64,000 nucleotides of DNA. Source: an uncultured SAR86 cluster bacterium. Lineage in GTDB: Bacteria; Pseudomonadota; Gammaproteobacteria; Magnimaribacterales; D2472. The DNA lies in the NCBI GenBank assembly GCA_902551185.1, contig CACDCN010000001.1, positions 3,049 through 67,048 on the forward strand. Reading direction: 5' to 3'. This document shows, piece by piece, positions 48,750-64,000 of this stretch (its first letter is position 1; the number at the start of each line of letters is the position of its first letter). A model generated the notes under the pieces. It ran no database searches. It was not told the origin of the DNA and was given only the letters and a program-made list of their open reading frames with translations. The position numbers and the translations under genes are program-made.

Positions 48750-50051
48750 TTATACCTCCAATGCTGGTTTGCAACTTTTTAATTCTTTTTTAAGTCTTTC
48801 TCTAAAGGCTGGGTCATCCACTGTTATGGTGTGTCTTGGGGTGTCTAACTGAGGGACATCTGGGTTTGCCATTTCTTTAGCAAGCAAATCTTTTATAGGT
48901 TTTTTTGGCTTCCATTGTCCTAATAAATGTCTTGCAGCAAGTTTTGACTGAAGCTCCGCACCAGGCCATATACACCCTAGTGGCTGGAATAAGCCAATAA
49001 AATATATGTTATTTATATCTGCAGGTATCATTCTATGTAATAAAGGCACCATACCTTCTTCATAATTTATAAAATCTTTATCAAAAAAAGAATGCTTTAT
49101 TCTAAATCCGGTACAAGCTATAACCACATCAAATTCTTCTTCATGACCATCAATAAAAGTAACTTTATTATTATTAAATTCTTTTATGTCTTTTTGTGGA
49201 CTTACCTTGCCATGTCGTACTGCATAATACAGCTCAGAGTTGACAGTTGGATGAGTTGCAAATATAGGTTGAGTAGGTTTTTGTAACCCAATGTCTTCAT
49301 TTTTGCCCTGGAATCTTTCAAGCATAAATCTTATGAAGGGAGCCCTAAAAATTCTTGGAACCCATCTATTTTTCATTGCATATAAGTCTGTTGGTAGTCC
49401 GTACATAAATTTTGGAATTAAGTAATAGCCCCTTCTCCAACTTATTGAGATTGATTTTGCAACTCTTGCTGTCTCAACAGCTACATCACAAGCTGAATTG
49501 CCTCCCCCAATAACAAGCACCCTTTTGTCTTTAAATGGTTTTGCTGACTTAAAATCATGCGAATGAATAAATTCGCCTGTAAATTTCCCTGGGTAATCAG
49601 GGTACCTTGGCTCATGATGATGACCATTGCATACTACCAATGCATCATATATGTCTGTTCTGACCTGATCTGATTCTAATTCCTTCCATGTAATTTCCCA
49701 TTTATCAGATTCTATTTGCTTGCAATGTTGCACCTCTGTGCCAAATTTAATTAACTTTCTAATATCAAAGTGATCGGTGTAGTTATTGAAATATTCCAAT
49801 AAATCTTTGTGAGAGGGATAGTCAGCTGCGTTTTCAGGTAATGGGTAATCCTCATAATAAGAAGTATATTTTGAACTTATAATGTGCGTTGTCTCAAAAA
49901 CACTTGAATGTCCTGATGGATCATTAAACCTCCAATTTCCTCCTACTCCTTGGCATCTCTCAAACGCCGTCACCTCAAAACCAAGATCTGAAAAATTTTT
50001 TATTGCAGTTATCCCACAAGGTCCTGCTCCTATTATTGCTACTTTATTCAT
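48750..50051 (-). CDS. flavin-containing monooxygenase (class B FMO)
   Basis: 433 aa with GAGPCG (FAD), the FMO motif FTGEFIHSHDF and GGGNSACD (NADPH). Confidence 0.85.
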   Translation of the reverse strand: MNKVAIIGAGPCGITAIKNFSDLGFEVTAFERCQGVGGNWRFNDPSGHSSVFETTHIISSKYTSYYEDYPLPENAADYPSHKDLLEYFNNYTDHFDIRKLIKFGTEVQHCKQIESDKWEITWKELESDQVRTDIYDALVVCNGHHHEPRYPDYPGKFTGEFIHSHDFKSAKPFKDKRVLVIGGGNSACDVAVETARVAKSISISWRRGYYLIPKFMYGLPTDLYAMKNRWVPRIFRAPFIRFMLERFQGKNEDIGLQKPTQPIFATHPTVNSELYYAVRHGKVSPQKDIKEFNNNKVTFIDGHEEEFDVVIACTGFRIKHSFFDKDFINYEEGMVPLLHRMIPADINNIYFIGLFQPLGCIWPGAELQSKLAARHLLGQWKPKKPIKDLLAKEMANPDVPQLDTPRHTITVDDPAFRERLKKELKSCKPALEV

Positions 50052-50887
50052 AACTTATGTTTTGTTTTTGGAGGGCCAAAGAAAAAATACATTGCTTCAT
50101 TTATATTTTTTGCCTCCATCATATCTTTAAATATCTGTTGCCATCCCATAAATGTAATTTTAGTTGGATTAAACGTATTAACATTATTAACTAATCCATA
50201 TTTTACCGATTCTTTTTCAGGCTCAAAAGTGCCAAACATACGATCCCATATTATTAAAAGATTGCCATAATTTTTATCTATATATTGGCTGTTTGCTCCA
50301 TGATGAACTCTATGATGCGAAGGAGTGTTAAAAATCCACTCAAGTGGTCCCAACTTACCAACAATTTGAGTATGGCCAACTATTCCCCACAAGGTGCTTA
50401 TTACTCCTGCGACTGCAATTATTGTTGGATCAAATCCCAACAATGGCATAACCATGAAAAATGGAACTTTGGATAATGGTCCAAACCAAGCCTGCCTAAA
50501 AGACACAGCAAAATTCATTTCTTCACTTGAGTGATGGCTCATATGAATCGCCCATAGGAAATTAACTCTATGAGAAATACGATGGTAAATATAAAAAACT
50601 AAATCTATCATCACAAAAGTTGCAACCCATATCATCCAAACTGGCATCAGGTCTGATAAATTAAATAACTTAAATTTGAATAAATAAAAATGAAGAGCAA
50701 GGGTTGCGCCTTTTAAAGCAAAAACCATAAGAATATTTCCAGTTAATAACCCAATTGTGCATAAACTATCATTCTTCTTGTATAGGTTCTTGTTATATGC
50801 ACTAGAGAACATCACCTCAATTAAGATCATAGCCAATACTATCGGGGCGCCAATTGCGTAAACCTGATTAATGGTTAATTCAGTCAT
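50048..50887 (-). CDS. fatty acid hydroxylase / sterol desaturase family membrane di-iron oxygenase
   Basis: 279 aa with histidine boxes HRISH, HMSHH and HHRVHH. 4-nt overlap with the FMO gene. Confidence 0.83.
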   Translation of the reverse strand: MTELTINQVYAIGAPIVLAMILIEVMFSSAYNKNLYKKNDSLCTIGLLTGNILMVFALKGATLALHFYLFKFKLFNLSDLMPVWMIWVATFVMIDLVFYIYHRISHRVNFLWAIHMSHHSSEEMNFAVSFRQAWFGPLSKVPFFMVMPLLGFDPTIIAVAGVISTLWGIVGHTQIVGKLGPLEWIFNTPSHHRVHHGANSQYIDKNYGNLLIIWDRMFGTFEPEKESVKYGLVNNVNTFNPTKITFMGWQQIFKDMMEAKNINEAMYFFFGPPKTKHKL

Positions 50888-50969
50888 TAAAAAATTTTAT
50901 ATTTTAGATCCTGCATATGTATATTATGTCTATAATTAGCAGTGCGAAGCAAACTTTAAGGGGTTAAAT

Positions 50970-51407
50970 ATGTTCGAAGTGTATCAATCTTCTCTAATAG
51001 GATTATGGCTAATATTAGCAACTATCATGATTCAGGCAATGGTTGCTATTAGGGTCCATCGTAGGCAGAAGGGGGGATATAAGCCCGGTATTGTTGACCC
51101 CTCTTTAGATCATTCATCATTTGTTTTTAGAACACATAGAACTTTCCAAAACTCCATAGAAAATATTATCCCAATGTTAGGAATGTCAGTTATTGCAATG
51201 CTTAGCGAGTATTCAGCCTCTAGACTTTCAACGATAATATGGATATATGCTATTTCAAGAATTATTTATATGATTCTTTACTATAAGATTGCGACTAATA
51301 AAAATCCTAGTAAAAGGAGTATTTTTTGGGCAATTGGTTTTCTGGTAAATGTATACCTTATAGTAGATTTAGGATTTTACCTTTTAGCATCATATTTATA
51401 CGGCTAA
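50970..51407 (+). CDS. MAPEG-family membrane protein (glutathione-transferase-like)
   Basis: 145 aa with 4 TM helices and an FRTHRTFQNSIENIIP motif (R..H.N..E..P). Confidence 0.62.
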   Translation: MFEVYQSSLIGLWLILATIMIQAMVAIRVHRRQKGGYKPGIVDPSLDHSSFVFRTHRTFQNSIENIIPMLGMSVIAMLSEYSASRLSTIIWIYAISRIIYMILYYKIATNKNPSKRSIFWAIGFLVNVYLIVDLGFYLLASYLYG

Positions 51408-51853
51408 AAAGATTTTAGTAAGGTTTTAATATTAGACATAAGGCTTGGATTGCCTTTAAAACTTTTAATTGATTTATCTGGCTCATTCCATTTATTTGCT
51501 GAATCGGTAAAAAAATTAGAATCTATCTTAACCCAACTCGAATCATCTAATGTGCCTGCTTTAATGAAGACAATGTGTGAAAGCTCTTTCTGATAACTTA
51601 GCACACCTGATCCGCAATTAGGACAAAATCCTCTGCTAACATGATTGCCTGAAGTGCCTTGGCTTTCAAAAAACTTTAAATCGCCATTCATCTCAACATA
51701 TTTCTTTGCAATAAATAAAATTGTGGCTTTTCCTGACCCGGTTGCTCTTTGACAATCCTTGCAATGACAATGATGCGCTGAAATAACCTTATTTGCATTA
51801 AAAGCATATGATATTTCGCCACACTGACATCTACCTCTTTGGATGTTGTTCAT
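51404..51853 (-). CDS. GFA-family (glutathione-dependent formaldehyde-activating / CENP-V-like) zinc protein
   Basis: 149 aa with CQCGE, CHCKDCQRATG and CPNCG cysteine motifs. Confidence 0.8.
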   Translation of the reverse strand: MNNIQRGRCQCGEISYAFNANKVISAHHCHCKDCQRATGSGKATILFIAKKYVEMNGDLKFFESQGTSGNHVSRGFCPNCGSGVLSYQKELSHIVFIKAGTLDDSSWVKIDSNFFTDSANKWNEPDKSIKSFKGNPSLMSNIKTLLKSF

Positions 51854-51884
51854 AAATTTATTCTACAGTAAACTCATGACAATC

Positions 51885-52343
51885 ATGAAAAATTACAAAA
51901 AATTACTTCTAACTTTCTTTATTTTCATGGCATGCAGTGTTAGTGCAGAAGTTGTTATTGATGAATATGGTTGTAAAACAAGGTTGACTCAGATGCTAAT
52001 ACCCGATTGGCCTAATGCTAATTACCAAGGTTATAGTATTGTTAGCTTTAATATTAATGAAGATGGTGAAATCTCAAAGTCTATTATTAAAGAATCTAAG
52101 TGCGCTATGGAAAGAGATAAAAATGGAATTATAGTTTTTGAGACATGTCCTTTCTTTAAAAAAGTTTCTTTTGCTGCATCAAAATATTTAAAGTATAAAA
52201 AACCTATTAATAAAGAAGGCTTGCCCTGTTCTATTGAAAATCATAAATATAAATATAATTTCTCTTTATATAATATTGAAATAAAGAACAATGATTTTCT
52301 ATTAAGAGAAGAGTATGAAGCTATGATGTATGATTCAAAATAA
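51885..52343 (+). CDS. secreted stand-alone TonB C-terminal-domain-like protein
   Basis: Start at MKNYKKLLLTFFIFMACSVSA (signal peptide). Contains PDWPNANYQGYSIVSFNINEDGEISK and C...C..F..A..KYLKYKKP. This parallels the TonB C-terminus encoded at 1932-2633 (PIYPRRAQERGTMGYALVSFTITETGSV ... C...C ... LKLKYKPK). Confidence 0.45.
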   Translation: MKNYKKLLLTFFIFMACSVSAEVVIDEYGCKTRLTQMLIPDWPNANYQGYSIVSFNINEDGEISKSIIKESKCAMERDKNGIIVFETCPFFKKVSFAASKYLKYKKPINKEGLPCSIENHKYKYNFSLYNIEIKNNDFLLREEYEAMMYDSK

Positions 52344-52350
52344 TCCTTAA

Positions 52351-52743
52351 TTACTTAATTCTCAACAATCCACATAATTTATGTCCTGTTGGGTCTCTTA
52401 AGTAGGCTAAGTACATACTAAATCTATCATAATCACGAATGCCTGGCGCTTCTTCAATTGAGGTTCCTCCATTTTCAATTCCTGCCTTATGCCATTGATC
52501 TCCTTGCTCTATGCTTTCTAAATTAAATCCAATCGTTGCTCCATTAGCAACAGTTGCTTTATTGCCATCAATTGGCTCTGTAATTGAGAAACTTGTTCCT
52601 TGAAAGTTATAAAAATATCTTTTTTGACCAGTTCGACTTGGATACATTTTCCCTGGGCCTGCACCAAGTACTTCAAATAACTTGTCATAAAATATTTTAG
52701 ATTCTTCTATATCATTTGTACCTACCATTATATGACTAAACAT
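52351..52743 (-). CDS. VOC (glyoxalase/bleomycin-resistance/dioxygenase) family protein
   Basis: 130 aa, single VOC domain, N-terminus MFSHIMVGTNDIEESKIFY. Confidence 0.8.
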   Translation of the reverse strand: MFSHIMVGTNDIEESKIFYDKLFEVLGAGPGKMYPSRTGQKRYFYNFQGTSFSITEPIDGNKATVANGATIGFNLESIEQGDQWHKAGIENGGTSIEEAPGIRDYDRFSMYLAYLRDPTGHKLCGLLRIK

Positions 52744-52758
52744 AAATTCACTCCTTTA

Positions 52759-53670
52759 TTAAAATAAATTAACTAATGAATAAGAAAATATTAGTGTAAA
52801 TGTCCACAAAACAAAAGCTACAGAAAATGTTTTGATATCTATCTGCTTCATTGCCTCTAAGCTAATCTGGGCCCCAATACAAAAAAGGGCTGCAACTAAG
52901 AATATCTGACTCATTGAATCCAATGCTAATAAAGTTTGCTCTTCAAAATTTAATGCTGAGCCCAATACAATTGCTAAAATAAAGATAAAAACGAAGATTG
53001 GAAATTTTGGTTTTGTGCTCTTTTCATCTTTATAAAAAATACCAAGGATTACAATCAATGGTATTAACCAAATTGTTCTTCCCAGCTTTAAAGTGGTAGC
53101 TACTTCTAAAGCAGCTCCCCCATAAGCCATTGCTGCGCCTACAACCGAACTGGTATCATGAATTGCCATTGCTGCCCATGCACCAAAACTCACATCAGCC
53201 ATACCTATGCTATTTGCAATTAATGGGAATAGCGCTATTGCCAAAGCATTAAATGAAAAAATAATAGCCATAGAAACTAATAATTCTCTTGGTTTTGCTT
53301 TTATTAATGGAGAAATTGCTGCCATTGCTGTCGCGCCACAAATTGCAGTCCCAGACGCTATTAAAAGAGCAAGTCTTTTTTCTATGTTAAAAATTTTACC
53401 TAATAAGAGTCCTGTTAAAAATACAACAAATACAAAAATTGAAATATATGGAAAATATAGAGCAGTTAATTCAAGGGCACTAGATGCTGATATGGTTAAA
53501 CCTAAAATTACTATTCCTGCTTGAAGAAATTTTGTTCCAATTGATTTGCTTATAAAGTCATCTGGTAATTTAAAAATTAACGCAAATCCCATGCCTGTTA
53601 CTAAAGCCAATAATGGTGATCCTATTAAAATAGCTAAAATTGCTAACAGTATTCCTATGCAAAGCTTCAT
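52759..53670 (-). CDS. YeiH/UPF0324 family membrane protein (putative sulfate exporter family)
   Basis: 303 aa with about 9-10 TM helices. The Gly/Ala-rich helices pattern is typical of UPF0324. The family call is from memory. Confidence 0.6.
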   Translation of the reverse strand: MKLCIGILLAILAILIGSPLLALVTGMGFALIFKLPDDFISKSIGTKFLQAGIVILGLTISASSALELTALYFPYISIFVFVVFLTGLLLGKIFNIEKRLALLIASGTAICGATAMAAISPLIKAKPRELLVSMAIIFSFNALAIALFPLIANSIGMADVSFGAWAAMAIHDTSSVVGAAMAYGGAALEVATTLKLGRTIWLIPLIVILGIFYKDEKSTKPKFPIFVFIFILAIVLGSALNFEEQTLLALDSMSQIFLVAALFCIGAQISLEAMKQIDIKTFSVAFVLWTFTLIFSYSLVNLF

Positions 53671-54509
53671 TTAGTATGTTCTATTAGTAAGGTTGGAACA
53701 TTGTTGGTGTGGGATTTTATGGTAGCTACCAAGGTATTTTCTTTTAAGCCACTTCTAATATCAGTTATCTCAACACCCTCCTTAATAAGTCTTCCATGAG
53801 TTTTTCCAATCGATTCAACCTCCCATGCCAAACCCCATAAACTATCCAATGAATCCTTGTCATCTTTCTTTTCAACCACCTCTATGGTGGTCTTATTTAA
53901 TCTGAAAAATAACATCCTGCTATTCCAATGTTCTATTACTTTATCTAGAGCAAGCCTGATATCAAATTCATTTTTATAAATATCTATAAACCCATCAGCA
54001 TCATTTGTATTAATAACTACGTGATCCAATTTATTGAAAGCGGTATCTGGATATGAGTCTATTGATGGGAGCTTTCCTTCGGTATGTTCGATAATAAAAG
54101 AAAAAAGCCCTCGAGTAAGCTCTGGCGGCAAAAAAAGATTTTTCCATTTTCTTATAGATTGATTATTAGAGTTTGTGCCTTCACCTAGCAATGGATCATT
54201 CATCATGTAGCCATTATCTTTTAATACTCTAGTAACCTTATCAATATTTTCTGTGCCAAAAACTATTCCTGTTAACCCCTCGCCCTTTTTCTGTATTGCA
54301 TCATTGACCAACGCAGCGCCTAATCCCTCTCCTTTTGCAGATAAAAGTTCAAAATAAGTATTCTTAAAATTAAAAATTGAATTAGCGGTGCCCAGCTCTT
54401 TGTGTTCGCCCTTCCACACCGGATCAATACCAAAAACTTTTTGATAATTTTTTTCTGCCTCATCAAGATCCTTAACAGCTACTATAAGATGGTCTAGTGT
54501 ATTTATCAT
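53667..54509 (-). CDS. two-domain VOC family protein
   Basis: 280 aa with two glyoxalase-like modules (LDHLIVAVKDLDEAEKNY and LDHVVINTNDADGF). Confidence 0.7.
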   Translation of the reverse strand: MINTLDHLIVAVKDLDEAEKNYQKVFGIDPVWKGEHKELGTANSIFNFKNTYFELLSAKGEGLGAALVNDAIQKKGEGLTGIVFGTENIDKVTRVLKDNGYMMNDPLLGEGTNSNNQSIRKWKNLFLPPELTRGLFSFIIEHTEGKLPSIDSYPDTAFNKLDHVVINTNDADGFIDIYKNEFDIRLALDKVIEHWNSRMLFFRLNKTTIEVVEKKDDKDSLDSLWGLAWEVESIGKTHGRLIKEGVEITDIRSGLKENTLVATIKSHTNNVPTLLIEHTK

Positions 54510-55000
54510 TCCTTATGCTTATACCATCTTGGTATATCCCTTTTTTTCCAAGTACAAAAATGTGCTTTCTCTCCCATATAGAAATTCTGATAAGCAATTA
54601 TTGAGTCATCGCACTTATATTCATCAGGCATACATTGCGGTGGCTGTTTAAAAGGCATGTCTTTTTGAATATTTTCTGGTGGCATTTCTAGAACATCTCT
54701 TAATAATAAATCTGTTGAATGTTTTTTTTCATATCTATAGGAGTATTCGTCTGATAAAGCTACAAATAAGCTGTATAACCAATTATATTGTGCTTCATTT
54801 TCTCTTGTCCAAACTGTACTTGGATGGTTTAAATGCGCTCTTTTATACATAGAAAGACTATCTGCTCTTTCATCACCATCTCGCTCTCGATGAGCTGTTG
54901 ATAACATTTGTGCGTATTCCAATATCATTTTTACACAGTGTTTATCATTATGCTCAATGGCAGCAATTTTTGGATCTTTATTTAAATAAAAAATATTCAT
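54506..55000 (-). CDS. conserved hypothetical protein (MNIFYL..DP..AA....DKH..KMILE.AQ.LS family)
   Basis: 164-aa ORF. The N-terminal motif recalls a family I remember from marine bacteria, phages and large DNA viruses, with no function known to me. 4-nt overlap with the downstream VOC gene. Confidence 0.5.
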   Translation of the reverse strand: MNIFYLNKDPKIAAIEHNDKHCVKMILEYAQMLSTAHRERDGDERADSLSMYKRAHLNHPSTVWTRENEAQYNWLYSLFVALSDEYSYRYEKKHSTDLLLRDVLEMPPENIQKDMPFKQPPQCMPDEYKCDDSIIAYQNFYMGEKAHFCTWKKRDIPRWYKHKE

Positions 55001-55031
55001 TAATTATTTGTTATATATTTTTGGTAAAAAT

Positions 55032-55256
55032 TTACGTTTGAGATTTATGAGTTCTACTTTCAATTTGTTCATTAATACTTTTTGCGCAATCACTGGCAGC
55101 TGTTTCAAATAAGAAAGGGAAAATAGAATGAATAATTGCTGCGATTCCAGAGAATATCATCTTAATTCCATATTTTGCAGAGCACCTTTGATGTTGAAAA
55201 TATGTTTCCCCGACTGCCTTTGGATGGCTAGTAAATAATTTAATAATTTTGTTCAA
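55032..55256 (-). CDS. small membrane protein (DUF6356-like)
   Basis: 74 aa with HPKAVGETYFQHQRCSAKYG followed by one TM helix. The family call is from memory. Confidence 0.45.
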   Translation of the reverse strand: MNKIIKLFTSHPKAVGETYFQHQRCSAKYGIKMIFSGIAAIIHSIFPFLFETAASDCAKSINEQIESRTHKSQT

Positions 55257-55288
55257 ACTAAAAATAGTCTACAGGATATTTTTCTTTT

Positions 55289-55567
55289 TTAAAAACCCTT
55301 TTCTTCCTTAAGCAGTCTTCTTTTAGTCTTTTCTCCTCCTGGCCCACTATACCCGCCAATACCTCCATCAGATCTGATTGCTCTATGACATGGAATCTCT
55401 ATTGGCCTTGGATTCTTGCCGCATGCATTTGCAACTGCCCTAGATGAATTGGGGTGTCCAATTGCTATTGCTATTTCTTTATATGATCTTGTGTGTCCTC
55501 GCGGAATCTTTTTAAGTTGTGCCCAAACTTTTTTTTGAAAGATTGTTCCAGATATTCTTTTATTCAA
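55289..55567 (-). CDS. MGMT-family methylated-DNA--protein-cysteine methyltransferase, C-terminal domain only
   Basis: 92 aa with the active-site IPCHRAI and an HTH-like region (SYKEIAIAIGHPNSSRAVANAC). Confidence 0.85.
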   Translation of the reverse strand: MNKRISGTIFQKKVWAQLKKIPRGHTRSYKEIAIAIGHPNSSRAVANACGKNPRPIEIPCHRAIRSDGGIGGYSGPGGEKTKRRLLKEEKGF

Positions 55568-55573
55568 TTTAAT

Positions 55574-55894
55574 TTACGATTTAAATAAGTTCACAATTGT
55601 AACGCCTATTACAATTAAAAATAATCCAGCAATTGTTTGCCAATTTAAAGTTTGTTTATAAAAAATATAGCTCAAAATAGCTATCGAAAATATTCCTATC
55701 CCAGACCATGAGGCATAAACAATTGAAAGGGGAAGTTTTTGAGAAACGATTGCAAGAAAATAGAAAGACATTCCATATGAGGTTAGCAATATTGCTGTTG
55801 GGGCTATTTTTGTAAAATTTTGTGATGCTGGTAAAAGCATGGTGCCAACAACCTCTAATGCAATTGCTATAAAAAGCAATGCATAGACATTCAT
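55574..55894 (-). CDS. SMR-family small multidrug-resistance transporter (EmrE/Qac-like)
   Basis: MNVYALLFIAIALEVVGT carries the membrane Glu, and YASWSGIG is present. 4 TM helices. The ATG at 55894 is preferred over the GTG at 55906. Confidence 0.85.
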   Translation of the reverse strand: MNVYALLFIAIALEVVGTMLLPASQNFTKIAPTAILLTSYGMSFYFLAIVSQKLPLSIVYASWSGIGIFSIAILSYIFYKQTLNWQTIAGLFLIVIGVTIVNLFKS

Positions 55895-55918
55895 TTTTCT
55901 ACCCACAGCATAAAGTTG

Positions 55919-57298
55919 TTATTTTTCATTATTAATTTGCCAAATTGTGCCGCAAGCATTTTCATTACATCTATCTACTAACTTTGTTGAAAGTGTAAAA
56001 TTATTTTCTTCTATTGATAAATTATTTAAATCAGGAATTACATTTCTTGTGGTTACTCCTATTACCTTGCAACTATTATTTTGAGTGTTGTTACTCCACC
56101 AACTAATTGTATCTTTTGCAGACAGAACAGGTCTTTGAATGTTTGAATAAAGTTCTTCAGCCGCAAAATATATTATTTCATCAAATTCTGAACGAAAAAG
56201 AATGTTTGAATCAAAGCCAGTTTCATTTTCAAAAAATAAAGGCATTCCATCACATTCTGCTTGATGTGAGCTTGCAATTATTCCTTCAAAATTTGTATAT
56301 GGAGTTATTGCTCGTGGACCATACAAAAGAATAATAAGTAAAAACGAAGCAATTTTTAAACCCATAAAATGCTTTCTCTCAAGATGAGTTATTAAAAATA
56401 AAGATAAAAAGGGGAAAAATGCTGTGAAATATCTGCCCTGATAGAAGGGGGACGTAATAGCCGAATAAGTAAAAATAATAACTATAGAAAAAATTATAGG
56501 ACTTATATCAAATAGGATCTTTTTAAATTTCTTTTTTGACATACTAAAAAGTAAAAAAATCCCAGTTATTATCAAAGGGATCATAAATGCTCCCGTATTT
56601 CTTATATGTCTAAAGTAAGAATCAATATGGTAATCGTTATTTAAAAGAACGCTTCCAGAAGAAAAAATTAATACAAACGAACATGATATAAAAATTACAA
56701 TTAATACAAAGCATCTTTTAAATATAGAATTGTTTTCAATAAAAAACTTAGCCATTACAGATACTACTAACAATCCTGCCAAAGCATGAAAGGCTGATAA
56801 GACTAAGCCTGATAATATGAATAAGTAAAAATAAAAATTTTCATCTTTTGATTTCGTCAATAGGTATGAGGATGAAAAAAGAACTGACCATGAAAATACA
56901 AACCCATAGGTTCTTAATTCAAAAAAGAATCTTAGGAAATATTCTGAGGCAAATAATACAAAAGCAAACATTAATATTCTTTCAAATGAGAGGACTCTTC
57001 TTAATAAAAAGAAAGAAAAAAATACAATCAATAAAGAAATAAAATGTATTGAAACTAAGATATCAAAATTTTTTAATCCGAGCAGATTGAAATAAAGCTT
57101 ATAAATAATAGTATGGAGAAGATAGTTTGGGTCAGCTGTTGTTATTGTAATAATAGAATTTATATCTTTTGAAGTAATCCAGTATTGATAAATCTCATCG
57201 TGCCATAACGGTAATGTCAGTTGAAAAGCAGCAAAGAAAAAAATAACTATAGGAATACTTATATTAAGAAGCATTTCAAAAGTTTTTTTATTGCTCAT
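55919..57298 (-). CDS. polytopic membrane protein, GT-C-type (ArnT/PMT-like) glycosyltransferase candidate
   Basis: About 460 aa with more than 10 TM helices and an acidic first-loop motif LPLWHDEIYQY. A soluble C-terminal domain carries several Cys. The gene is very AT-rich. The call rests on architecture only. Confidence 0.5.
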   Translation of the reverse strand: MSNKKTFEMLLNISIPIVIFFFAAFQLTLPLWHDEIYQYWITSKDINSIITITTADPNYLLHTIIYKLYFNLLGLKNFDILVSIHFISLLIVFFSFFLLRRVLSFERILMFAFVLFASEYFLRFFFELRTYGFVFSWSVLFSSSYLLTKSKDENFYFYLFILSGLVLSAFHALAGLLVVSVMAKFFIENNSIFKRCFVLIVIFISCSFVLIFSSGSVLLNNDYHIDSYFRHIRNTGAFMIPLIITGIFLLFSMSKKKFKKILFDISPIIFSIVIIFTYSAITSPFYQGRYFTAFFPFLSLFLITHLERKHFMGLKIASFLLIILLYGPRAITPYTNFEGIIASSHQAECDGMPLFFENETGFDSNILFRSEFDEIIYFAAEELYSNIQRPVLSAKDTISWWSNNTQNNSCKVIGVTTRNVIPDLNNLSIEENNFTLSTKLVDRCNENACGTIWQINNEK

Positions 57299-57349
57299 TC
57301 TTATCTCTATTCTACCCAATAATTGAGTGAAAGTTACACGTATTTATCG

Positions 57350-57355
57350 TATAAT
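57350..57355 (+). promoter_or_regulatory. candidate -10 hexamer TATAAT for the plus-strand ORFan pair
   Basis: A perfect TATAAT lies about 95 nt upstream of the ATG at 57450. There is no convincing -35 element. Confidence 0.2.
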
Positions 57356-57449
57356 TAAAAGTGTACATCAAGAAATAAATTCCTTATTTCAAATTCAAAC
57401 ACATACAACAATATACCTAATTTCGGGTATGTTATTTATGGAGAAAACT

Positions 57450-57743
57450 ATGGAACAAATCTATAGAAAAGAGTTTCCCCATGGCAGTCATTCTGTCTAT
57501 GGCGAATATGGAATTAATAGAGACTTGGTTCTCAGTTCTTATCACTACGGTTCTGATGTTGAGGATTTCTGGGGTAATGATGAGTATGAATACTATCTCA
57601 TTGTCGAGAAAGATGATGTCCCTAAATTCCTTTTAGAGAGTCTAACCAAGGGTTTCAATTCTGAGGAAAAGTTTACCCTTCATGACTTAAAAGAAATGTG
57701 TGACAAAAAGGGAATCAAATATACAACAACTTCTTATGTCTAA
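57450..57743 (+). CDS. hypothetical protein (97 aa, acidic/aromatic-rich)
   Basis: The ATG at 57450 is preceded by GGAGAAAACT. The track ORF begins at a GTG at 57327, which I do not favour. No family recognised. Confidence 0.45.
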   Translation: MEQIYRKEFPHGSHSVYGEYGINRDLVLSSYHYGSDVEDFWGNDEYEYYLIVEKDDVPKFLLESLTKGFNSEEKFTLHDLKEMCDKKGIKYTTTSYV

Positions 57744-57960
57744 TTATGAAATTAGAAATGATGATGATCTAAGACTTTGGTTTAGGATTAAATCTATTGA
57801 AAAGAAAATACATAAACTTGGTCCTATGTACTCTAAAGAATTTGATTGGGTAGAGTGGGAAGGTCTTGAGGCAGAATCAGCAATATATGTTTCACAATTA
57901 TCTATTTATAAAGATGTTGTTAAAAAGATTGTTGCTAGATACAACCTTTTTAAAAAATAA
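57736..57960 (+). CDS. hypothetical protein (74 aa)
   Basis: The ATG at 57736 overlaps the upstream stop by 8 nt (ATGTCTAA), suggesting translational coupling. No family recognised. Confidence 0.42.
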   Translation: MSNYEIRNDDDLRLWFRIKSIEKKIHKLGPMYSKEFDWVEWEGLEAESAIYVSQLSIYKDVVKKIVARYNLFKK

Positions 57961-58101
57961 TCATTTTTTTAAAAACATTAATGAAGTTGTTGCTAATATA
58001 ACAAGCATCAAAATTGCAAACTGCTTTTCTTCAACGATAGCAACAACAAGAATTGCTGCTGCCCACATGATTGAATTAGAAATTAATAATTTTTTACTCA
58101 T
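57961..58101 (-). CDS. hypothetical small hydrophobic peptide (46 aa, 2 predicted TM), not in the ORF track
   Basis: Translates to MSKKLLISNSIMWAAAILVVAIVEEKQFAILMLVILATTSLMFLKK. AAGGTG lies 12 nt upstream of the ATG. Its 3' end abuts the convergent plus-strand ORF. Confidence 0.3.
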   Translation of the reverse strand: MSKKLLISNSIMWAAAILVVAIVEEKQFAILMLVILATTSLMFLKK

Positions 58102-58117
58102 ATTATGAAGACACCTT

Positions 58118-58143
58118 TATCTACTCTACAGTAACGGAGTAGA
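58118..58143. repeat. copy A of a 19-nt motif TATCTACTCTACAGTAACG, embedded in a 7-bp-stem hairpin
   Basis: TCTACTC (58120-58126) pairs with GAGTAGA (58137-58143). 17/19 identical to the copy at 58793-58811. Confidence 0.45.
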
Positions 58144-58153
58144 CATAACCAAA

Positions 58154-58354
58154 TTATATTGACTCATAATTATCTGAATAATGTTTTTCTCTCTCTTCTT
58201 TCTTCATACCAACTGTATCGTTCATAAAATTATTTCTTTCTTCTCTAGATTTGAAAACCCAAATGCAAACTGTATCACGTGAATGATAAATTGCTTTTAA
58301 CTCGTCATCTATTTCACAAATTTCTTTTGGTATTTCTGTTTTAATACAAATCAT
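58154..58354 (-). CDS. hypothetical protein (66 aa)
   Basis: ORF whose ATG overlaps the upstream stop (ATGA junction at 58351-58354). No family recognised. Confidence 0.42.
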   Translation of the reverse strand: MICIKTEIPKEICEIDDELKAIYHSRDTVCIWVFKSREERNNFMNDTVGMKKEEREKHYSDNYESI

Positions 58355-58737
58355 GACTCAAATCTTAACTTTCTGTGTATCAATATAAACAAACCTGTTC
58401 CAATTATAGTCCATAGAATATCATTCCAATCGAAGACACCTCTTCCAGGTGTAAAAATTGTAATGAACTCATTGGCAATTAATCCCGATATGGAGATTCC
58501 TACTGACCAATAGAGTCGATTTTTAAATAAAGATGAATTAGGTTTGGATACTTCTGGAATTACTACATATAACAGAGCAGGCAATCCAATTCCTGGTAAG
58601 AAATTTGGAGCAACCCCAAGAAGATAAATTATTATTCCATTAGCGCCATCGTAATTTGGTCTTATGTAATCCTGGACTATAGAAAAAAGCAAAAAAGAAA
58701 TAGCAAAAATAATGTAATAAACGAACTTTCTATTCAT
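58351..58737 (-). CDS. small integral membrane protein (4 TM; weak VanZ-like C-terminal motif)
   Basis: 128 aa. VFDWNDILWTIIGTGLFILI resembles the D..D...N..G...G end of VanZ-like proteins. The assignment is weak. Confidence 0.45.
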   Translation of the reverse strand: MNRKFVYYIIFAISFLLFSIVQDYIRPNYDGANGIIIYLLGVAPNFLPGIGLPALLYVVIPEVSKPNSSLFKNRLYWSVGISISGLIANEFITIFTPGRGVFDWNDILWTIIGTGLFILIHRKLRFES

Positions 58738-58792
58738 TTTTATGTTTTATCACTAATATTTAATATACACAATCTTGTAAAGTGGACAGTTC

Positions 58793-58811
58793 TATCTACT
58801 CAACGGTAACG
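58793..58811. repeat. copy B of the 19-nt motif (TATCTACTCAACGGTAACG)
   Basis: 17/19 identical to 58118-58136, in the same orientation and 675 bp away. An imperfect complementary arm, GAGTgcAGA, lies at 58822-58830. Confidence 0.45.
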
Positions 58812-58905
58812 AATTCATTTTGAGTGCAGAATTAAGAGTATGTCTTTTTCTAAACCCTTTGTGAAATTTTAAATAAAATTCAATTTCTTTTTTGTTCATA
58901 AAAAA

Positions 58906-59262
58906 TCAACATATCATGCAATGATCGATAAGAATTTTGCCTTCTACTTCCTTAAAAATTGCTTGATTGATCAATTCGTCATTACTTGAAGAAGTTTTTT
59001 GTTTCCAAACAATTCCAACTGAGTCGCTTCTTCTAAATAAACACACAAACTCTCTTTTAGTCCAATAAATTTTTGGTTCAATTGATAACTGTCTTTTGAG
59101 TTCTTCAGGTGTAACTATGGACTTCATTCTATTTGTGAAATACTTTGTATGCTTTTTATGGTCACCCTCATTGGAACCCTCCAAACAACTATCCATAATT
59201 GGTTCTACTATACTAAGAATTTCATCTTCACTAAGATTGGGGAGTTTCAATTCTGCACTCAA
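58906..59262 (-). CDS. hypothetical protein (118 aa) immediately downstream of glmS
   Basis: The ORF starts 2 nt after the glmS stop. It is soluble and Cys-terminated (DHCMIC). No family recognised with confidence. Confidence 0.48.
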   Translation of the reverse strand: MSAELKLPNLSEDEILSIVEPIMDSCLEGSNEGDHKKHTKYFTNRMKSIVTPEELKRQLSIEPKIYWTKREFVCLFRRSDSVGIVWKQKTSSSNDELINQAIFKEVEGKILIDHCMIC

Positions 59263-59264
59263 GA

Positions 59265-61091
59265 TTATTCAACCGTGACTGACTTAGCAAGATTTCTTGG
59301 TTGATCAATATCGGTACCCCTTAAAAGAGCAACTTCGTAGGAAAGAATTTGAAGCGGAATAGTATAAATAATTGGAGTTAAAAGAAAATCGCATTTAGGC
59401 ATACTAATAACCTGTCCTGATTTTAAATCGATTGTTATCGAAGGGTCAGCGAATACATATAGAGTTCCACCCCTAGCCTTAACTTCTTCGAGATTTGAAA
59501 CAAGCTTCTCCGCTATATCGCTTTCTGGAGCTAATGCAATAACTGGCATTTCTTCATCAATTAATGCCAAAGGTCCGTGTTTTAATTCGCCGGCCGGGTA
59601 AGCCTCAGCATGAATATAAGAGATTTCTTTAAGCTTAAGAGCGCCTTCTTTTGCAATGGGATAGAAGATACCTCTTCCTAAAAATAAAGCATTATCTTTG
59701 CTTGCTATTTCAGGCGCTATCTCAAGAATTTTGTCTTTTAATTTCAAGGTCTCATTTACAGTATCAGATAACGATCTCATTGCTGTAATAACACGAGTCC
59801 TTAATTTCGGATTTTTACCCCTACTCTTTGCAAGCGCAAGAGAAAGTAGCATTAATGCAGCTAGTTGAGTGGTAAATGCTTTGGTTGAGGCAACGCCTAT
59901 CTCGGGGCCAGCATTAGTAAAAATGGAATAGTCAGACTCTCTTGCTAAAGAGCTGGTCGGCACATTGCAAATTGTTAATGTTGATAAATAATCTTTTTCT
60001 TTTGCATATCTTAATGCGGCGAGTGTATCTGCTGTTTCTCCTGACTGAGATATTGTTACCAATAAAGAATCTTCATCGACATGTGGATTTCTATATCTAT
60101 ATTCTGAAGCATAATCAATCTGGGTTGGCAGCTCTGCGATAGCAGAAAACCAGTTTGCAGCAACCCTTCCTGCATGCAGGCTAGTTCCACAAGCAACAAT
60201 TTGGATTCTTTTTACTTTTTCAAATATTTCAGATGACCCCATACCAAAGATATTATCTAGTACATCATCGCCACCGACTCTACCATCGATAGTATTTAGA
60301 ATTGCATCAGGCTGTTCATATATTTCTTTTTCCATGAAATGTTTGTATTCGCCTTTAGAGGTTGCCTGACTGGAAATGTCAATTTGAGAAATCTCTCTTT
60401 CGACTTTATTTTTTGACTGATCATAGATTGTAAATTCTTCAGATGAGAGCTCAGCCACATCCCCATCTTCTAAGAAAATAAATTCATTTGTCAGCTGTGC
60501 TATAGCAAGAGGATCTGATGCAGCTAAAAACTCATCAGTTCCTATTCCAATTAATAGTGGTGATTTGTTTCTAGCGATAATTATATTTTTGTCATCTTCT
60601 TTATCTATTGCTGCAATTGCATAGGCACCATCAAGCTTTTCTTTAGTTAAGTACATCGAATCTATCATTGAATTACCCTTAGCTAAAAAATACTCAAGCA
60701 TATGGGCTATTAATTCTGAGTCTGTTTGAGAAGAAAAGTTATAGCCCTCCTTTTTTAAAAATTCTTTTAAATCAAGATAGTTTTCAATAATTCCATTGTG
60801 AACAATATAAACTCTTTCATTTGATTTATGAGGATGAGCGTTTTCTTCTGATGGCTCTCCATGAGTTGCCCATCTAGTATGAGCAATCCCTAGCTTACTT
60901 TTTGGCTTTTCGGAGATCATCTTTTCTTCAAGTAATTTAACTTTTCCTAGGGTTCTTAAATGGGCTATTTGATTATTCTGATGAAGTGCGATCCCGGCAG
61001 AGTCATAGCCCCGATACTCCATTTTGTGAAGCCCCTGAACAAGAAGCTTTCCTACATTTCTGTTAGAAGCAGCAGCTATGATTCCACACAT
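59265..61091 (-). CDS. glmS: glutamine--fructose-6-phosphate aminotransferase (isomerizing)
   Basis: 608 aa with the N-terminal MCGI nucleophile, two SIS domains and a C-terminal ...PRNLAKSVTVE. Confidence 0.97.
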   Translation of the reverse strand: MCGIIAAASNRNVGKLLVQGLHKMEYRGYDSAGIALHQNNQIAHLRTLGKVKLLEEKMISEKPKSKLGIAHTRWATHGEPSEENAHPHKSNERVYIVHNGIIENYLDLKEFLKKEGYNFSSQTDSELIAHMLEYFLAKGNSMIDSMYLTKEKLDGAYAIAAIDKEDDKNIIIARNKSPLLIGIGTDEFLAASDPLAIAQLTNEFIFLEDGDVAELSSEEFTIYDQSKNKVEREISQIDISSQATSKGEYKHFMEKEIYEQPDAILNTIDGRVGGDDVLDNIFGMGSSEIFEKVKRIQIVACGTSLHAGRVAANWFSAIAELPTQIDYASEYRYRNPHVDEDSLLVTISQSGETADTLAALRYAKEKDYLSTLTICNVPTSSLARESDYSIFTNAGPEIGVASTKAFTTQLAALMLLSLALAKSRGKNPKLRTRVITAMRSLSDTVNETLKLKDKILEIAPEIASKDNALFLGRGIFYPIAKEGALKLKEISYIHAEAYPAGELKHGPLALIDEEMPVIALAPESDIAEKLVSNLEEVKARGGTLYVFADPSITIDLKSGQVISMPKCDFLLTPIIYTIPLQILSYEVALLRGTDIDQPRNLAKSVTVE

Positions 61092-61093
61092 CT

Positions 61094-62449
61094 TTAGTCC
61101 TTCTTTTTAGACCAGTTTTCTTTATTGTCTTGTTTTGCCCTGCCAACACCAAGAGCATCGTCAGGCACATCTTTTGTAATAACTGATCCTGCTGCAACAT
61201 ATGCATTCGACCCAATTGTAACTGGTGCTACCAAGGAAGAGTTTGTACCAATAAAACTTTTGTCTCCAATTTTAGTTGCGTGTTTATCTTTGCCATCGTA
61301 ATTGCATGTAATAGTTCCAGCTCCAATGTTTGACTCCTCTCCAATTTCAGCATCTCCTAAATATGCGAAATGGTTTGCTTTCGAGTTTTTGCCCACTATT
61401 GTCTTTTTAGTTTCAACAAAATTGCCTATTCTTGCTCCATCATCAATATGACTTCCCTCTCTAAGACGAGCATATGGGCCAATTGAGCAATCTTTCCCTA
61501 CTTTAGATGAGACTAGATGAGAAAATGCCTCAATAGATGAGCCATCTCCAATCTCAACATCTTTAATAATAGTATTAGGCCCAATAACAACATTATTACC
61601 AAGCGTGATTTTTCCATCTAAAATTACATTTACATCTATAACACAATCTTTTCCAACAGATATTTCTCCCCTAACATCAACCCTAGACGGATCTGATAAA
61701 GTTATGCCCATTTTTAATAAATCTTCTGCTTTCATCTTTCTATAAATTTGCTCTAATTCTGCTAGCTCTGTTTTAGTATTTGCGCCTTTAACTTCATCGT
61801 TTGGCACAACACATGTTTTAATTTTAAACCCTTTTGCATTAATTATAGAAACTATATCAGTTAAATAGTATTCTTCAGCTGCATTATTATTTTTTACTTT
61901 ATTTATTGCATCCTCTAAGAGCCTTTTGTTGCAGCATAAAATCCCAGTAAAGATTTCATTAATTAGCTTGTCTTCATTAGAAGCATCTTTTTCTTCAACT
62001 ATTGCTTCTGCTAGACCATCTGAATCCTTTTTTACTCTTCCGTACCCAGCTGGTTTGTCCATAAGGGTTGTTAAAATTGTTAGGCTATCTGTGGTTGAAG
62101 TGATTAAATTTTCTAAAGTATTTTTTTGAATTAATGGAACATCTCCATATAAAACAAGAACTTTAGATTCATCTGATATTGTATCTAATGAAGATTTGAC
62201 TGCATCAGCAGTCCCAATTGCTTCTTTTTGTTCACTTATATTAATTTTGCCATTAAAGGAATTGGCTTCTTTTATTATCGACTCTTTTTCATAGCCAACC
62301 ACAAATGTCGCCTCATCTGTTATGTCTTGAACAGTTTCATAAATTCTTTTAAGCATAGAGTGTCCGCCAACTGGCTGTAGAGATTTTGCTTTAGATGAAA
62401 GCATTCTTGAGCCCTCGCCCGCAGCTAATATTACAGTATGAATTTTCAC
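61094..62449 (-). CDS. glmU: bifunctional UDP-N-acetylglucosamine pyrophosphorylase / glucosamine-1-phosphate N-acetyltransferase
   Basis: 451 aa with LAAGEGSRM and C-terminal left-handed beta-helix hexapeptide repeats. Confidence 0.95.
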   Translation of the reverse strand: MKIHTVILAAGEGSRMLSSKAKSLQPVGGHSMLKRIYETVQDITDEATFVVGYEKESIIKEANSFNGKINISEQKEAIGTADAVKSSLDTISDESKVLVLYGDVPLIQKNTLENLITSTTDSLTILTTLMDKPAGYGRVKKDSDGLAEAIVEEKDASNEDKLINEIFTGILCCNKRLLEDAINKVKNNNAAEEYYLTDIVSIINAKGFKIKTCVVPNDEVKGANTKTELAELEQIYRKMKAEDLLKMGITLSDPSRVDVRGEISVGKDCVIDVNVILDGKITLGNNVVIGPNTIIKDVEIGDGSSIEAFSHLVSSKVGKDCSIGPYARLREGSHIDDGARIGNFVETKKTIVGKNSKANHFAYLGDAEIGEESNIGAGTITCNYDGKDKHATKIGDKSFIGTNSSLVAPVTIGSNAYVAAGSVITKDVPDDALGVGRAKQDNKENWSKKKD

Positions 62450-62473
62450 AATAAATAAGGCTAAATAGATACC

Positions 62474-62887
62474 TTACTGTTTTTTGCGGAGTTTTTGAAT
62501 AGTTTTAAGTCTTGCCACTGCTTCGGCCAGTTGAGCTGATGCTTTGGCATAATCAAGCGTGGCATCTTTATTTGCTAATTCTTGCTCTGCTATTTCTTTT
62601 GCTTTTATTGCTTCAGATTCATCAAGACTGTCTGCCCTTTCTGCTGTGTCTGATAAAACAGTTACTAAATCAGGTTGCACTTCTAAAAAACCACCTGAGC
62701 AAAAGAACGCCTCTTCTTCTGATCCATTTTGAACTCTAACTGGACCAGCAGCTAAACCTGTTAAGAGTGGTGTATGTCCAGGCGCTATGCCTAGCTCGCC
62801 AAGCGTTCCTGTGGCATAGACCATAGTTGCTTCGCCAGAATAGATCTCTTCACTTGAAGAAACTATATTAATTTTAATAGTACTCAT
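62474..62887 (-). CDS. atpC: F0F1 ATP synthase subunit epsilon
   Basis: 137 aa with a beta-sandwich plus C-terminal helical hairpin. It follows atpD. Confidence 0.93.
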   Translation of the reverse strand: MSTIKINIVSSSEEIYSGEATMVYATGTLGELGIAPGHTPLLTGLAAGPVRVQNGSEEEAFFCSGGFLEVQPDLVTVLSDTAERADSLDESEAIKAKEIAEQELANKDATLDYAKASAQLAEAVARLKTIQKLRKKQ

Positions 62888-62889
62888 TG

Positions 62890-64000
<1,111 letters not shown>

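Follow-up and report, generated by a model that had tools for sequence, protein, structure and literature searches.

Arrays of small, apparently mobile cassettes at the 3' end of glmS in SAR86 bacteria, and a candidate recombinase for their movement

The glmS gene of an uncultured SAR86 cluster bacterium is followed by an interval of small open reading frames (ORFs) that is punctuated by further copies of the glmS 3' end. The DNA in question, hereafter called the window, is a stretch of 64,000 nucleotides (nt) from contig CACDCN010000001.1 of NCBI GenBank assembly GCA_902551185.1 (positions 3,049 to 67,048 of the forward strand). This interval is probably the portion nearest glmS of an array in which small mobile cassettes are arranged in tandem. 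The array would have arisen through site-specific recombination at the 3' end of the gene, and its likely catalyst is a clade of large serine recombinases (LSRs). An earlier note on the same DNA, made without database searches, had described an islet of seven ORFs and had proposed either strain-variable cargo left at a hotspot for Tn7-like insertions or a small membrane-associated module. Variable cargo at a glmS hotspot is strongly supported, because synteny breaks at the glmS stop codon and cassettes are reordered among SAR86 genomes. The association with Tn7 is not supported, and the notion of a single module does not hold, as described below.

Copies of the glmS end and the units between them

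The window has a GC content of about 33% and carries the atp operon, glmU, and glmS on its minus strand. The product of glmS (59265..61091, 608 aa) shares 99% identity with the GlmS proteins of two SAR86 single-cell genomes, AG-404-N17 and AG-430-O03. The last 15 nt of the gene (59265-59279, minus strand, GTCACGGTTGAATAA) read V T V E stop and would constitute an attL-like chromosomal attachment core, termed junction 1, with the AC at 59275-59276 as the probable exchange dinucleotide. Direct copies of this gene end (GTNACNGTNGARTAR, encoding VTVE-stop) are present on the same strand at 58796..58810 (junction 2, GTTACCGTTGAGTAG, reading ..EFVTVE stop) and at 58121..58135 (junction 3, GTTACTGTAGAGTAG, reading ..YSVTVE stop). 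A position weight matrix (PWM) for the core, built from other genomes, gives the true glmS end a score of 34.8 and the two copies scores of 23.6 and 27.6, respectively, and the next-best site in the window scores 0.4. The sites at 59265, 58796, and 58121 are the only high-scoring cores in the 64 kb, and all three lie on the glmS strand. A model-free repeat search also recovers the glmS-end direct repeat (D4), together with an inverted repeat (I17) that is formed by the ends of the first unit.

Both copies, with their flanking arms, fall in the two sizeable non-coding gaps that the earlier note had pointed out (58102-58153 and 58738-58905). The gaps are real and, judging from the sequences they contain, are recombination junctions. 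The ORFs it had listed (118, 128, 66, 46, 97, and 74 aa, plus a doubtful one of 35 aa) were all found where it had placed them, as were the overlaps ATGA at 58351-58354 and ATGTCTAA at 57736-57743. However, these ORFs do not form one membrane-associated module, as they split into at least two independently mobile cassettes and a distal segment. The 35-aa ORF (58792-58899, minus strand) runs across junction 2 and is therefore probably not a gene.

Cassette A (58811..59264, minus strand) contains the 118-aa ORF (58906-59262). Its TTG start codon lies inside the start arm of the cassette (59249-59264, TCTTGAGTGCAGAATT), two bases past the glmS stop codon. This start arm and the end arm (58817-58833, with GAATTC at 58811-58816) are terminal inverted repeats that are 94% complementary (I17). 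Cassette B (58136..58795, minus strand) contains the 128-aa ORF (58351-58737), which overlaps the 66-aa ORF (58154-58354). Its start arm (58782-58795, ATAGAACTGTCCAC) and end arm (58136-58155, AATTTGGTTATGTC-TACTCC) are not mutually complementary and represent a hybrid pair. Junction 3 is the final recognizable core of the window, and a PWM scan of 55906-58120 revealed no hidden cores. A candidate fourth core at 51858-51872 (..EFTVE stop) was rejected based on its PWM score of -4.3. The end of the ORF at this location (51858-51887) matches the glmS end at 13 of 15 bases and is conserved in loci L011 and L021, and this resemblance is most likely due to chance and does not mark an array boundary.

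Similar arrangements are common in other members of the group. We compared 60 SAR86 species-representative loci in which the sequence extends 2 kb or more past glmS. In 54 of them, copies of GTNACNGTNGARTRR occur downstream on the glmS strand, 187 in all, of which 141 are exact and 46 have one mismatch. In the 10 kb upstream there were no exact and four one-mismatch copies, and the opposite strand yielded five. Alteromonas controls carried no exact downstream copy and a single match with one mismatch, in L085. The median spacing from copy to copy is 675 bp, and the longest ORF points in the glmS direction in 141 of 163 cassettes. The content of these arrays is exceedingly diverse: 223 cassettes form 161 families, 133 of them singletons, and 154 larger array ORFs form 101 clusters. 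Array ORFs include restriction-modification enzymes, sulfotransferases, dehydrogenases, methionine sulfoxide reductases, and a TetR-desaturase pair.

Two features of array content were encountered repeatedly. Defense and DNA-modification cargo is abundant both in cassettes and in the LSR-bearing elements described below (L002 6572-9053; L100 2980-7018; L091 5380-6990; L195 1082-7068), with examples including a MazG-like protein with a C5 methylase, an N6/N4 methylase with a ResIII helicase, an MvaI/BcnI endonuclease, and a QueC-like/C5-methylase fusion with a small resolvase. In addition, a recurrent mini-unit that comprises a start arm and a terminator-like hairpin (…TTTTAATCCCGCATTCTGCGGGG…) follows a core in many arrays (e.g., L012 ~12366, L024 ~12398, L028 ~12630, L011 ~13354, L094 ~3185, and L096 ~2295). 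This mini-unit may be a transcription stop for glmS or a minimal non-coding cassette.

The anatomy of the site is consistent across SAR86. The core is preceded by (C/T)ACTCC and is the center of a palindrome, ACTCC-GTNACNGT-GGAGT, beyond which lie arms of 14-20 nt. The start arm and the end arm of the same unit tend to be reverse complements, with 92 of 220 pairs scoring at least 10. Arms across one junction are unrelated (9 of 228 reach this score), and random pairs behave alike. Strong inverted repeats are present in 124 units, and in 120 of these the dyad axis is located precisely between positions 3 and 4 of the core (A|C in GTNACNGT).

The point of exchange was mapped from the linkage of variable third-codon positions in the core, using junctions that had been de-duplicated by neighbor type. 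Junctions with the same left neighbor agree at a frequency of 0.81 at position -1 and 0.72 at position 2, and agreement then falls to 0.29 at position 5 (baseline 0.31). For junctions with the same right neighbor, agreement is at baseline at position 2 and then climbs to 0.49 at position 5, 0.79 at position 8, and 0.97 at position 11. Ownership of the core switches between positions 2 and 5, and therefore exchange occurs at or adjoining the central AC, on the dyad axis. Serine recombinases act on sites where a two-base staggered cut is made at a non-palindromic central dinucleotide. The coincidence of the dyad axis and the exchange point at the central AC is, on this evidence, the geometry of a serine-recombinase site. 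Tyrosine recombinases need identity in the overlap region, and an enzyme of this type would be hindered here because positions 2 and 5, which lie within that region, differ between partners.

Individual cassettes have moved between genomes. An exact-protein look-up with the 128-aa ORF returned many contigs in which the gene is always near glmS and its neighbors differ. Approximately 690 bp (58120-58811) are 95-98% identical in L001, L002, and L003, where glmS is only 64-75% identical, and this cassette B segment begins and ends at sequences that translate to ...(S)VTVE-stop, which is the GlmS C-terminus. More generally, 77 full-length cassette pairs between loci have a mean identity of 93%, compared with 79.6% for the adjacent 915 bp of glmS, and 42 cassette pairs are at least 90% identical where glmS is less than 80% identical. 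A single cassette family can occupy array positions 1 to 9. The cassette A family has eight members at positions 1, 3, and 5, and the cassette B family has 13 members at positions 1-6, with several alternative ends.

Comparisons among close relatives reveal where the variation begins and ends. In L011, the closest available genome (glmS DNA 94% identical), synteny with the window is lost at the stop codon of glmS (59266) and is restored at the gene for a small multidrug resistance (SMR) transporter (55905), and the segment with the 46-aa ORF is the sole part in between that the two genomes have in common. Clearly, the same seven ORFs are not conserved in order in all relatives. The gene located directly after glmS in L072 (~11828), a locus with only ~400 bp downstream of glmS, sits behind two to seven cassettes in L013 (14058), L020 (13618), and L024 (15508), which looks like an empty site and its filled counterparts. 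The downstream gene in these four loci is preceded by ..AAACAGTGATTT.., which suggests that the most frequent type of arm on cassettes is similar to the native far side of this site.

A clade of large serine recombinases at the glmS end

The sole recombinase among array ORFs of at least 150 aa is an LSR of 551 aa in L025, with Resolvase, Recombinase, and zinc-ribbon (Zn_ribbon) domains. It is encoded by the last gene of a 6-kb element that starts right after the glmS stop codon and includes a rolling-circle-Rep-like gene. Cores and complementary arms (GTTTAGTCGGTCTTTC / GAAAGACCGATTAAAC) mark the limits of this element. Relatives of this LSR with 51-72% identity reside on equivalent elements after glmS in other genomes. 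In L025, L091, L095, L101, L102, and L114, the LSR gene is the last one of a 6-9 kb element that lies directly after glmS and carries the same cores and inverted arms. In metagenomes, a profile scan retrieved 80 loci with related LSRs (31-80% identity). The samples are marine and in some cases apparently non-marine, and both low- and high-GC hosts are represented. Of the 66 loci with enough flanking sequence, 62 carry either a glmS-end core 30-150 bp past the LSR gene or a convergent glmS.

Among distant LSR lineages (32-35% identity; L161, L162, L168, L169, and L184), the recombinase gene is convergent with the glmS 3' end, and the orientation of the element is flipped relative to the SAR86 type. 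Outside SAR86, multi-core arrays are already visible at L111, L129, and L159.

The arms of the sites provide a second link between cassettes and recombinases. By inspection, close LSRs share one arm, and more distant LSR groups carry other arms. About 75 of 229 SAR86 cassette end arms match the LSR-adjacent arms of particular lineages at 13 or more of 18 positions, whereas the best score among shuffled sequences is 12. For cassette B, the end arm (AATTTGGTTATG..TACTCC) agrees with the arm of the L126 LSR lineage at 13 of 18 positions, the lowest score counted. In L117, L126, and L128, an arrangement of LSR gene, arm, core, and arm is joined directly to sequence that is collinear with the left end of the element, such that right end and left end meet at one site. 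Such junctions may derive from an excised circle, and would also fit tandem copies.

In PDB and phage searches, the closest relatives of the LSR are integrases such as SPbeta SprA, TP901-1, and phiC31, and it is less than 30% identical to these and to streptococcal phage integrases. A scan of viral contigs with the single LSR protein produced no match. A profile scan found integrated LSR elements of 8.5-10.8 kb that are classed as viral by IMG/VR, and the one of these that was scanned for genes (L195) carries methyltransferases and a small resolvase and no phage structural genes. Searches of the open-access literature returned no prior description of the SAR86 glmS array, of glmS-targeting serine recombinases, or of integron-like LSR arrays, and within that literature the LSR group targeting the glmS 3' end is previously undescribed.

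These findings can be accommodated by the following mechanism. Each unit would carry a two-part attachment site whose inner part imitates the last codons of glmS, and therefore the glmS reading frame would be kept after each insertion. The outer arms are mutual inverted repeats in about half of the units. An enzyme of the LSR clade most likely cuts at the central AC of this site, and after integration the site halves would lie at both ends of the unit, each beside a glmS-end core. Successive insertions would then stack units downstream of glmS. Because most units are oriented like glmS, read-through from that gene would be possible. Promoter and terminator scans of the region found nothing exceeding shuffled controls, and thus it is the orientation of the units that points to expression from glmS.

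The LSRs themselves would be encoded on rare integrative elements of 6-10 kb at the same site, and would move recombinase-less cassettes, including A and B, in trans, with the cassettes perhaps passing through circular intermediates. A role for the LSR clade in moving small cassettes is suggested by the shared site architecture, the shared location, the matching arms, and the lack of any other recombinase. Since the LSR gene is absent from the window and present on the related 6-10 kb elements, the units of the window would be non-autonomous.

Alternative explanations and related systems

Several observations weigh against LSR-driven assembly of these arrays. There is no recombinase within the window, and an LSR is found within 10 kb of glmS in just one (L025) of about 73 SAR86 species-representative loci. 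No sampled LSR lineage was matched by the most frequent class of arms (AAATCACTGTT.../...AACAGTGATTT). Linkage to the right-hand unit is only partial at positions 5 (0.49) and 8 (0.79), the arms of cassette B are non-complementary, and about half of all units are without strong inverted repeats. Moreover, the cores were found with a glmS-derived pattern, which misses degenerate sites and makes the conservation of the core partly circular. Most array junctions, too, are hybrids of two half-sites of the element type. Canonical LSRs recombine attP with attB only, and therefore stacking and excision would need relaxed site rules. The Ccr recombinases of staphylococcal cassette chromosome mec (SCCmec) are reported to be less strict on their sites. 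A strict attP x attB model, in which AACAGTGATTT-type cassettes are attB-like and alternate with LSR-type units, was rejected by inspection because that arm type is commonly present on both sides of junctions.

Other explanations for the same data must also be considered. The small units might be debris, left by LSR elements that repeatedly integrated at glmS and were internally deleted, with the remnants spread by homologous recombination of their flanks and not individually mobile. Many cassette end arms, along with the preceding motif GGAGAATGAAAG, do match the ~35 bp found after LSR genes, cassettes A and B co-travel in nine loci, and the rarity of LSR elements relative to cassettes is what fast decay would give. 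We nevertheless consider this explanation unlikely. No LSR fragments were found in any array, and the same cassette recurs with identical core-to-core boundaries at differing positions and beside different neighbors in genomes whose glmS genes are only 64-80% identical. Conserved flanks, which homologous recombination would require, are absent. A still lower probability is assigned to movement by a tyrosine recombinase whose gene lies at another locus (such as IntI of the integron type, an integrase of the phage type, or host XerCD), in which case the LSR elements would simply use the same site. Arrays of small, co-oriented cassettes that have no recombinase do recall integrons and attC arrays that lack an integrase, and the palindromic sites could fold like attC. 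However, the inverted repeats here are at the two ends of a unit and not adjacent as in attC, exchange occurs at AC and not at G|TTRRRY, and the variable positions 2 and 5 would lie inside any overlap region of 6-8 bp. Also, a motif scan of 154 array ORFs, albeit a crude test, found no tyrosine-recombinase box, and the autonomous elements of the same architecture encode an LSR.

The classical Tn7 site lies just 3' of glmS, and this established knowledge led the earlier note to suggest attTn7 as the context of the islet and to recommend a search for Tn7-like end repeats and 22-mers bound by TnsB. It is very improbable that the islet consists of remnants of Tn7-like or CRISPR-associated transposon (CAST) insertions. 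The junctions are located inside the last five codons of glmS and not ~25 bp downstream, and what is duplicated is a 15-20 bp repeat of the glmS end, whose synonymous bases differ from copy to copy, instead of the 5-bp duplication left by Tn7. A repeat search of 55800-59400 shows only D4 and I17, so there are no multi-copy end repeats and no left and right ends that bear several ~22-bp TnsB sites and TGT...ACA termini, and Pfam and NCBIfam searches of the ORFs in 55919-59262 detected neither Tn7 transposition genes (TnsA/B/C, TnsD/TniQ) nor their remnants. Least probable of all, to the point of being negligible, is the possibility that these are ordinary conserved neighbors of glmS and that the repeats reflect chance or regulatory motifs. 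A homolog of the 118-aa protein does occur directly after glmS, with no second core, in a gammaproteobacterial contig of 50% GC. In contrast, the content of the interval differs between genomes with 99% identical GlmS proteins, 187 copies of the core lie downstream versus four upstream, and 133 of 161 cassette families are singletons.

If cassettes are indeed moved by LSRs, the closest functional analogue would be a composite island of the SCCmec type at rlmH (orfX). SCC elements likewise integrate into the 3' end of a housekeeping gene and keep its reading frame, and they carry direct repeats that mimic the gene end with adjoining terminal inverted repeats. They also form tandem units, many of them recombinase-less and presumed to be moved in trans. 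The SAR86 arrays show the arrangement by which such composite islands are recognized, which is tandem units between direct target-end repeats, with inverted repeats beside them and many units devoid of a recombinase. Furthermore, Ccr enzymes are large serine recombinases, as is the candidate enzyme here. The differences are considerable, in that the target is glmS, the hosts are SAR86 and other aquatic bacteria, and the units, which mostly measure 0.2-1.5 kb and hold one or two genes, compare with 20-60 kb for SCC. There is also a single LSR, which is less than 30% identical to the characterized integrases retrieved in the PDB and phage searches (a comparison confined to those enzymes), and the diversity of cassettes is on the level of integrons.

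Integrons share with these arrays a collection of small, mostly promoterless-looking, co-oriented, and highly diverse cassettes at one docking site, without a recombinase of their own, as well as palindromic attachment sites that vary in sequence and keep their complementarity. The array of small, co-oriented, diverse cassettes is thus in place, but the intI gene and attC sites that define an integron are not, and no intI was found beside glmS in the window or in the ~73 SAR86 species-representative loci, which were examined near glmS. Here the candidate enzyme is a serine and not a tyrosine recombinase, and docking takes place at the end of a gene that is essential. Each integrated cassette has one half of the palindrome at either end, and exchange occurs at the central AC and not at G|TT of R'.

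Tycheposons and tRNA-linked islands of Prochlorococcus provide another informative comparison, since they occur in a streamlined and abundant marine host and combine rare integrase-bearing elements with a common island at the same site (bioRxiv 10.1101/2020.12.28.424599). They also resemble the SAR86 arrays in their adaptive or defense cargo and in their multiple partial copies of the target gene, which record a series of integrations with older DNA displaced inward each time. However, tycheposons target tRNA genes, and 910 of 937 elements use tyrosine recombinases (bioRxiv 10.1101/2020.12.28.424599). Small one-gene cassettes that are bounded by terminal inverted repeats and shared between species are not their described pattern.

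Tn7 and the putative system at hand both reach a safe site by way of the C-terminal coding sequence of glmS, which is extremely conserved. Tn7 relies on TnsABCD transposition with a 5-bp duplication and inserts downstream of the gene, whereas the SAR86 units are consistent with conservative site-specific recombination inside the last codons. Finally, the serine integrases of phages and integrative and conjugative elements (phiC31, Bxb1, TP901-1, and SPbeta SprA) have the same domain architecture as the glmS-associated LSRs, act on sites with dyad symmetry about a non-palindromic central dinucleotide, and use arms that differ between LSR groups and are shared within each group. They differ from these LSRs in sequence (less than 30% identity) and in their strict attP x attB rule, as opposed to junctions composed of two element-type halves.

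SAR86 bacteria are among the most abundant heterotrophs of the surface ocean and have a tiny genome, and we know of no described route by which they gain genes. The glmS locus offers a concrete, sequence-defined candidate for such a mechanism, with a site, an exchange point, and a candidate enzyme. It also provides a catalog of hundreds of cassette families, including restriction-modification and defense-like genes, that can be tracked in metagenomes. Because the apparent target of the LSR clade comprises the codons of the GlmS C-terminus, which are conserved in nearly all bacteria, these enzymes are candidates for a broad-host-range integration tool that might complement Tn7. If it is true that they act on junctions of two element-type halves, then the known site logic of LSRs would be widened. 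We also entertain, more tentatively and with some reservation, a broader proposal that this is the serine-recombinase counterpart of the integron. The glmS 3' end would then serve as a universal docking site and read-through promoter for an open-ended array of sub-kilobase cassettes, and a dedicated LSR clade on rare helper elements, following non-canonical site rules, would capture, shuffle, and exchange cassettes between species, and possibly between phyla. Such a system could be a main route of flexible-gene gain in SAR86 and other streamlined aquatic bacteria.

The remainder of the variable region and the encoded proteins

The islet proposed in the earlier note spanned 57320-59262. Comparison with L011 confirms that the DNA after glmS is variable, but places the limits of the variable region at 55906-59265. 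As that note had stated, the interval after glmS lacks mobility genes, and a tblastn search with the LSR as query found no match in the window. No known RNA families or tRNAs were detected in 55800-59400 or in 50000-64000.

Beyond junction 3 lies a distal flank (57961..58120, minus strand) that consists of an arm (ATAAAGGTGTCTTC, 58107-58120) and the hydrophobic 46-aa ORF (57961-58101). The same sequence also follows the last core in L006, L007, L021, and L022, and it is 85% identical to L011 17026-17162 and 93% identical to L021. In this SAR86 subclade, it probably represents the resident sequence on the far side of the site. Next is a pair of genes on the opposite strand (57327..57960, plus strand), encoding proteins of 97 aa (57450-57743) and 74 aa (57736-57960) and overlapping at ATGTCTAA. 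This pair has no flanking cores, is absent from L011, and is called as a gene pair on four short metagenome contigs, and we regard it as part of the variable island and not as a recognizable cassette. The gene that follows (55919..57319, minus strand) encodes the 466-aa polytopic membrane protein that the earlier note had labeled GT-C, for which there is no Pfam or NCBIfam match. It is missing at this position in L011, and an 85% identical copy resides within the L014 island; this gene is also variable-island DNA. The SMR transporter gene (55574..55906, minus strand) is the conserved distal anchor of the island, and in other SAR86 genomes its distance from glmS is 3.3-9.4 kb.

The small ORFs of the window have no confident match in Pfam, NCBIfam, PHROGs, or PADLOC, in agreement with the earlier note, which had recognized no confident family for any of them. 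More sensitive methods, however, place two of them. The AlphaFold2 (AF2) model of the 118-aa protein of cassette A (predicted local distance difference test [pLDDT] score 91.8) has three to four helices and a four-stranded sheet in an alpha+beta cone. A Foldseek search with this model retrieved NTF2, SnoaL, and SgcJ proteins (E 2.5e-4 to 1e-3), with template modeling (TM) scores up to 0.67 (SgcJ). There is no sequence-family match, and we are confident in assigning the modeled structure to the NTF2-like fold. A homolog with 60% identity is located at L190 8001-8402, directly after glmS and without a second core, on the 3.9-Mb contig of 50% GC mentioned above. Other homologs are found away from glmS in contigs labeled as Flavobacteriaceae (L187-L189), and the family is widely dispersed.

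The 128-aa protein of cassette B scores 13.8 bits against PF04892 (VanZ; E 0.09), for which the cut-off is 30.1. Among its homologs, 25 of 43 match PF04892 at E ≤0.01, the best at 2.5e-5. Its AF2 model is a four-helix membrane bundle (pLDDT 87.5), and a fold search with it gave no informative match and no solved structure for comparison. By way of its homologs, the 128-aa protein can be placed as a probable divergent VanZ-like membrane protein.

Two small DNA-repair genes that are conserved with L011 lie beyond the island. One (55289-55567) encodes a 92-aa protein that consists of only the DNA-binding domain of methylguanine methyltransferase, with a PCHR motif. The other (54506-55000) encodes a protein with weak similarity to pyrimidine-dimer glycosylases (E 5.7e-4, under the family cut-off).

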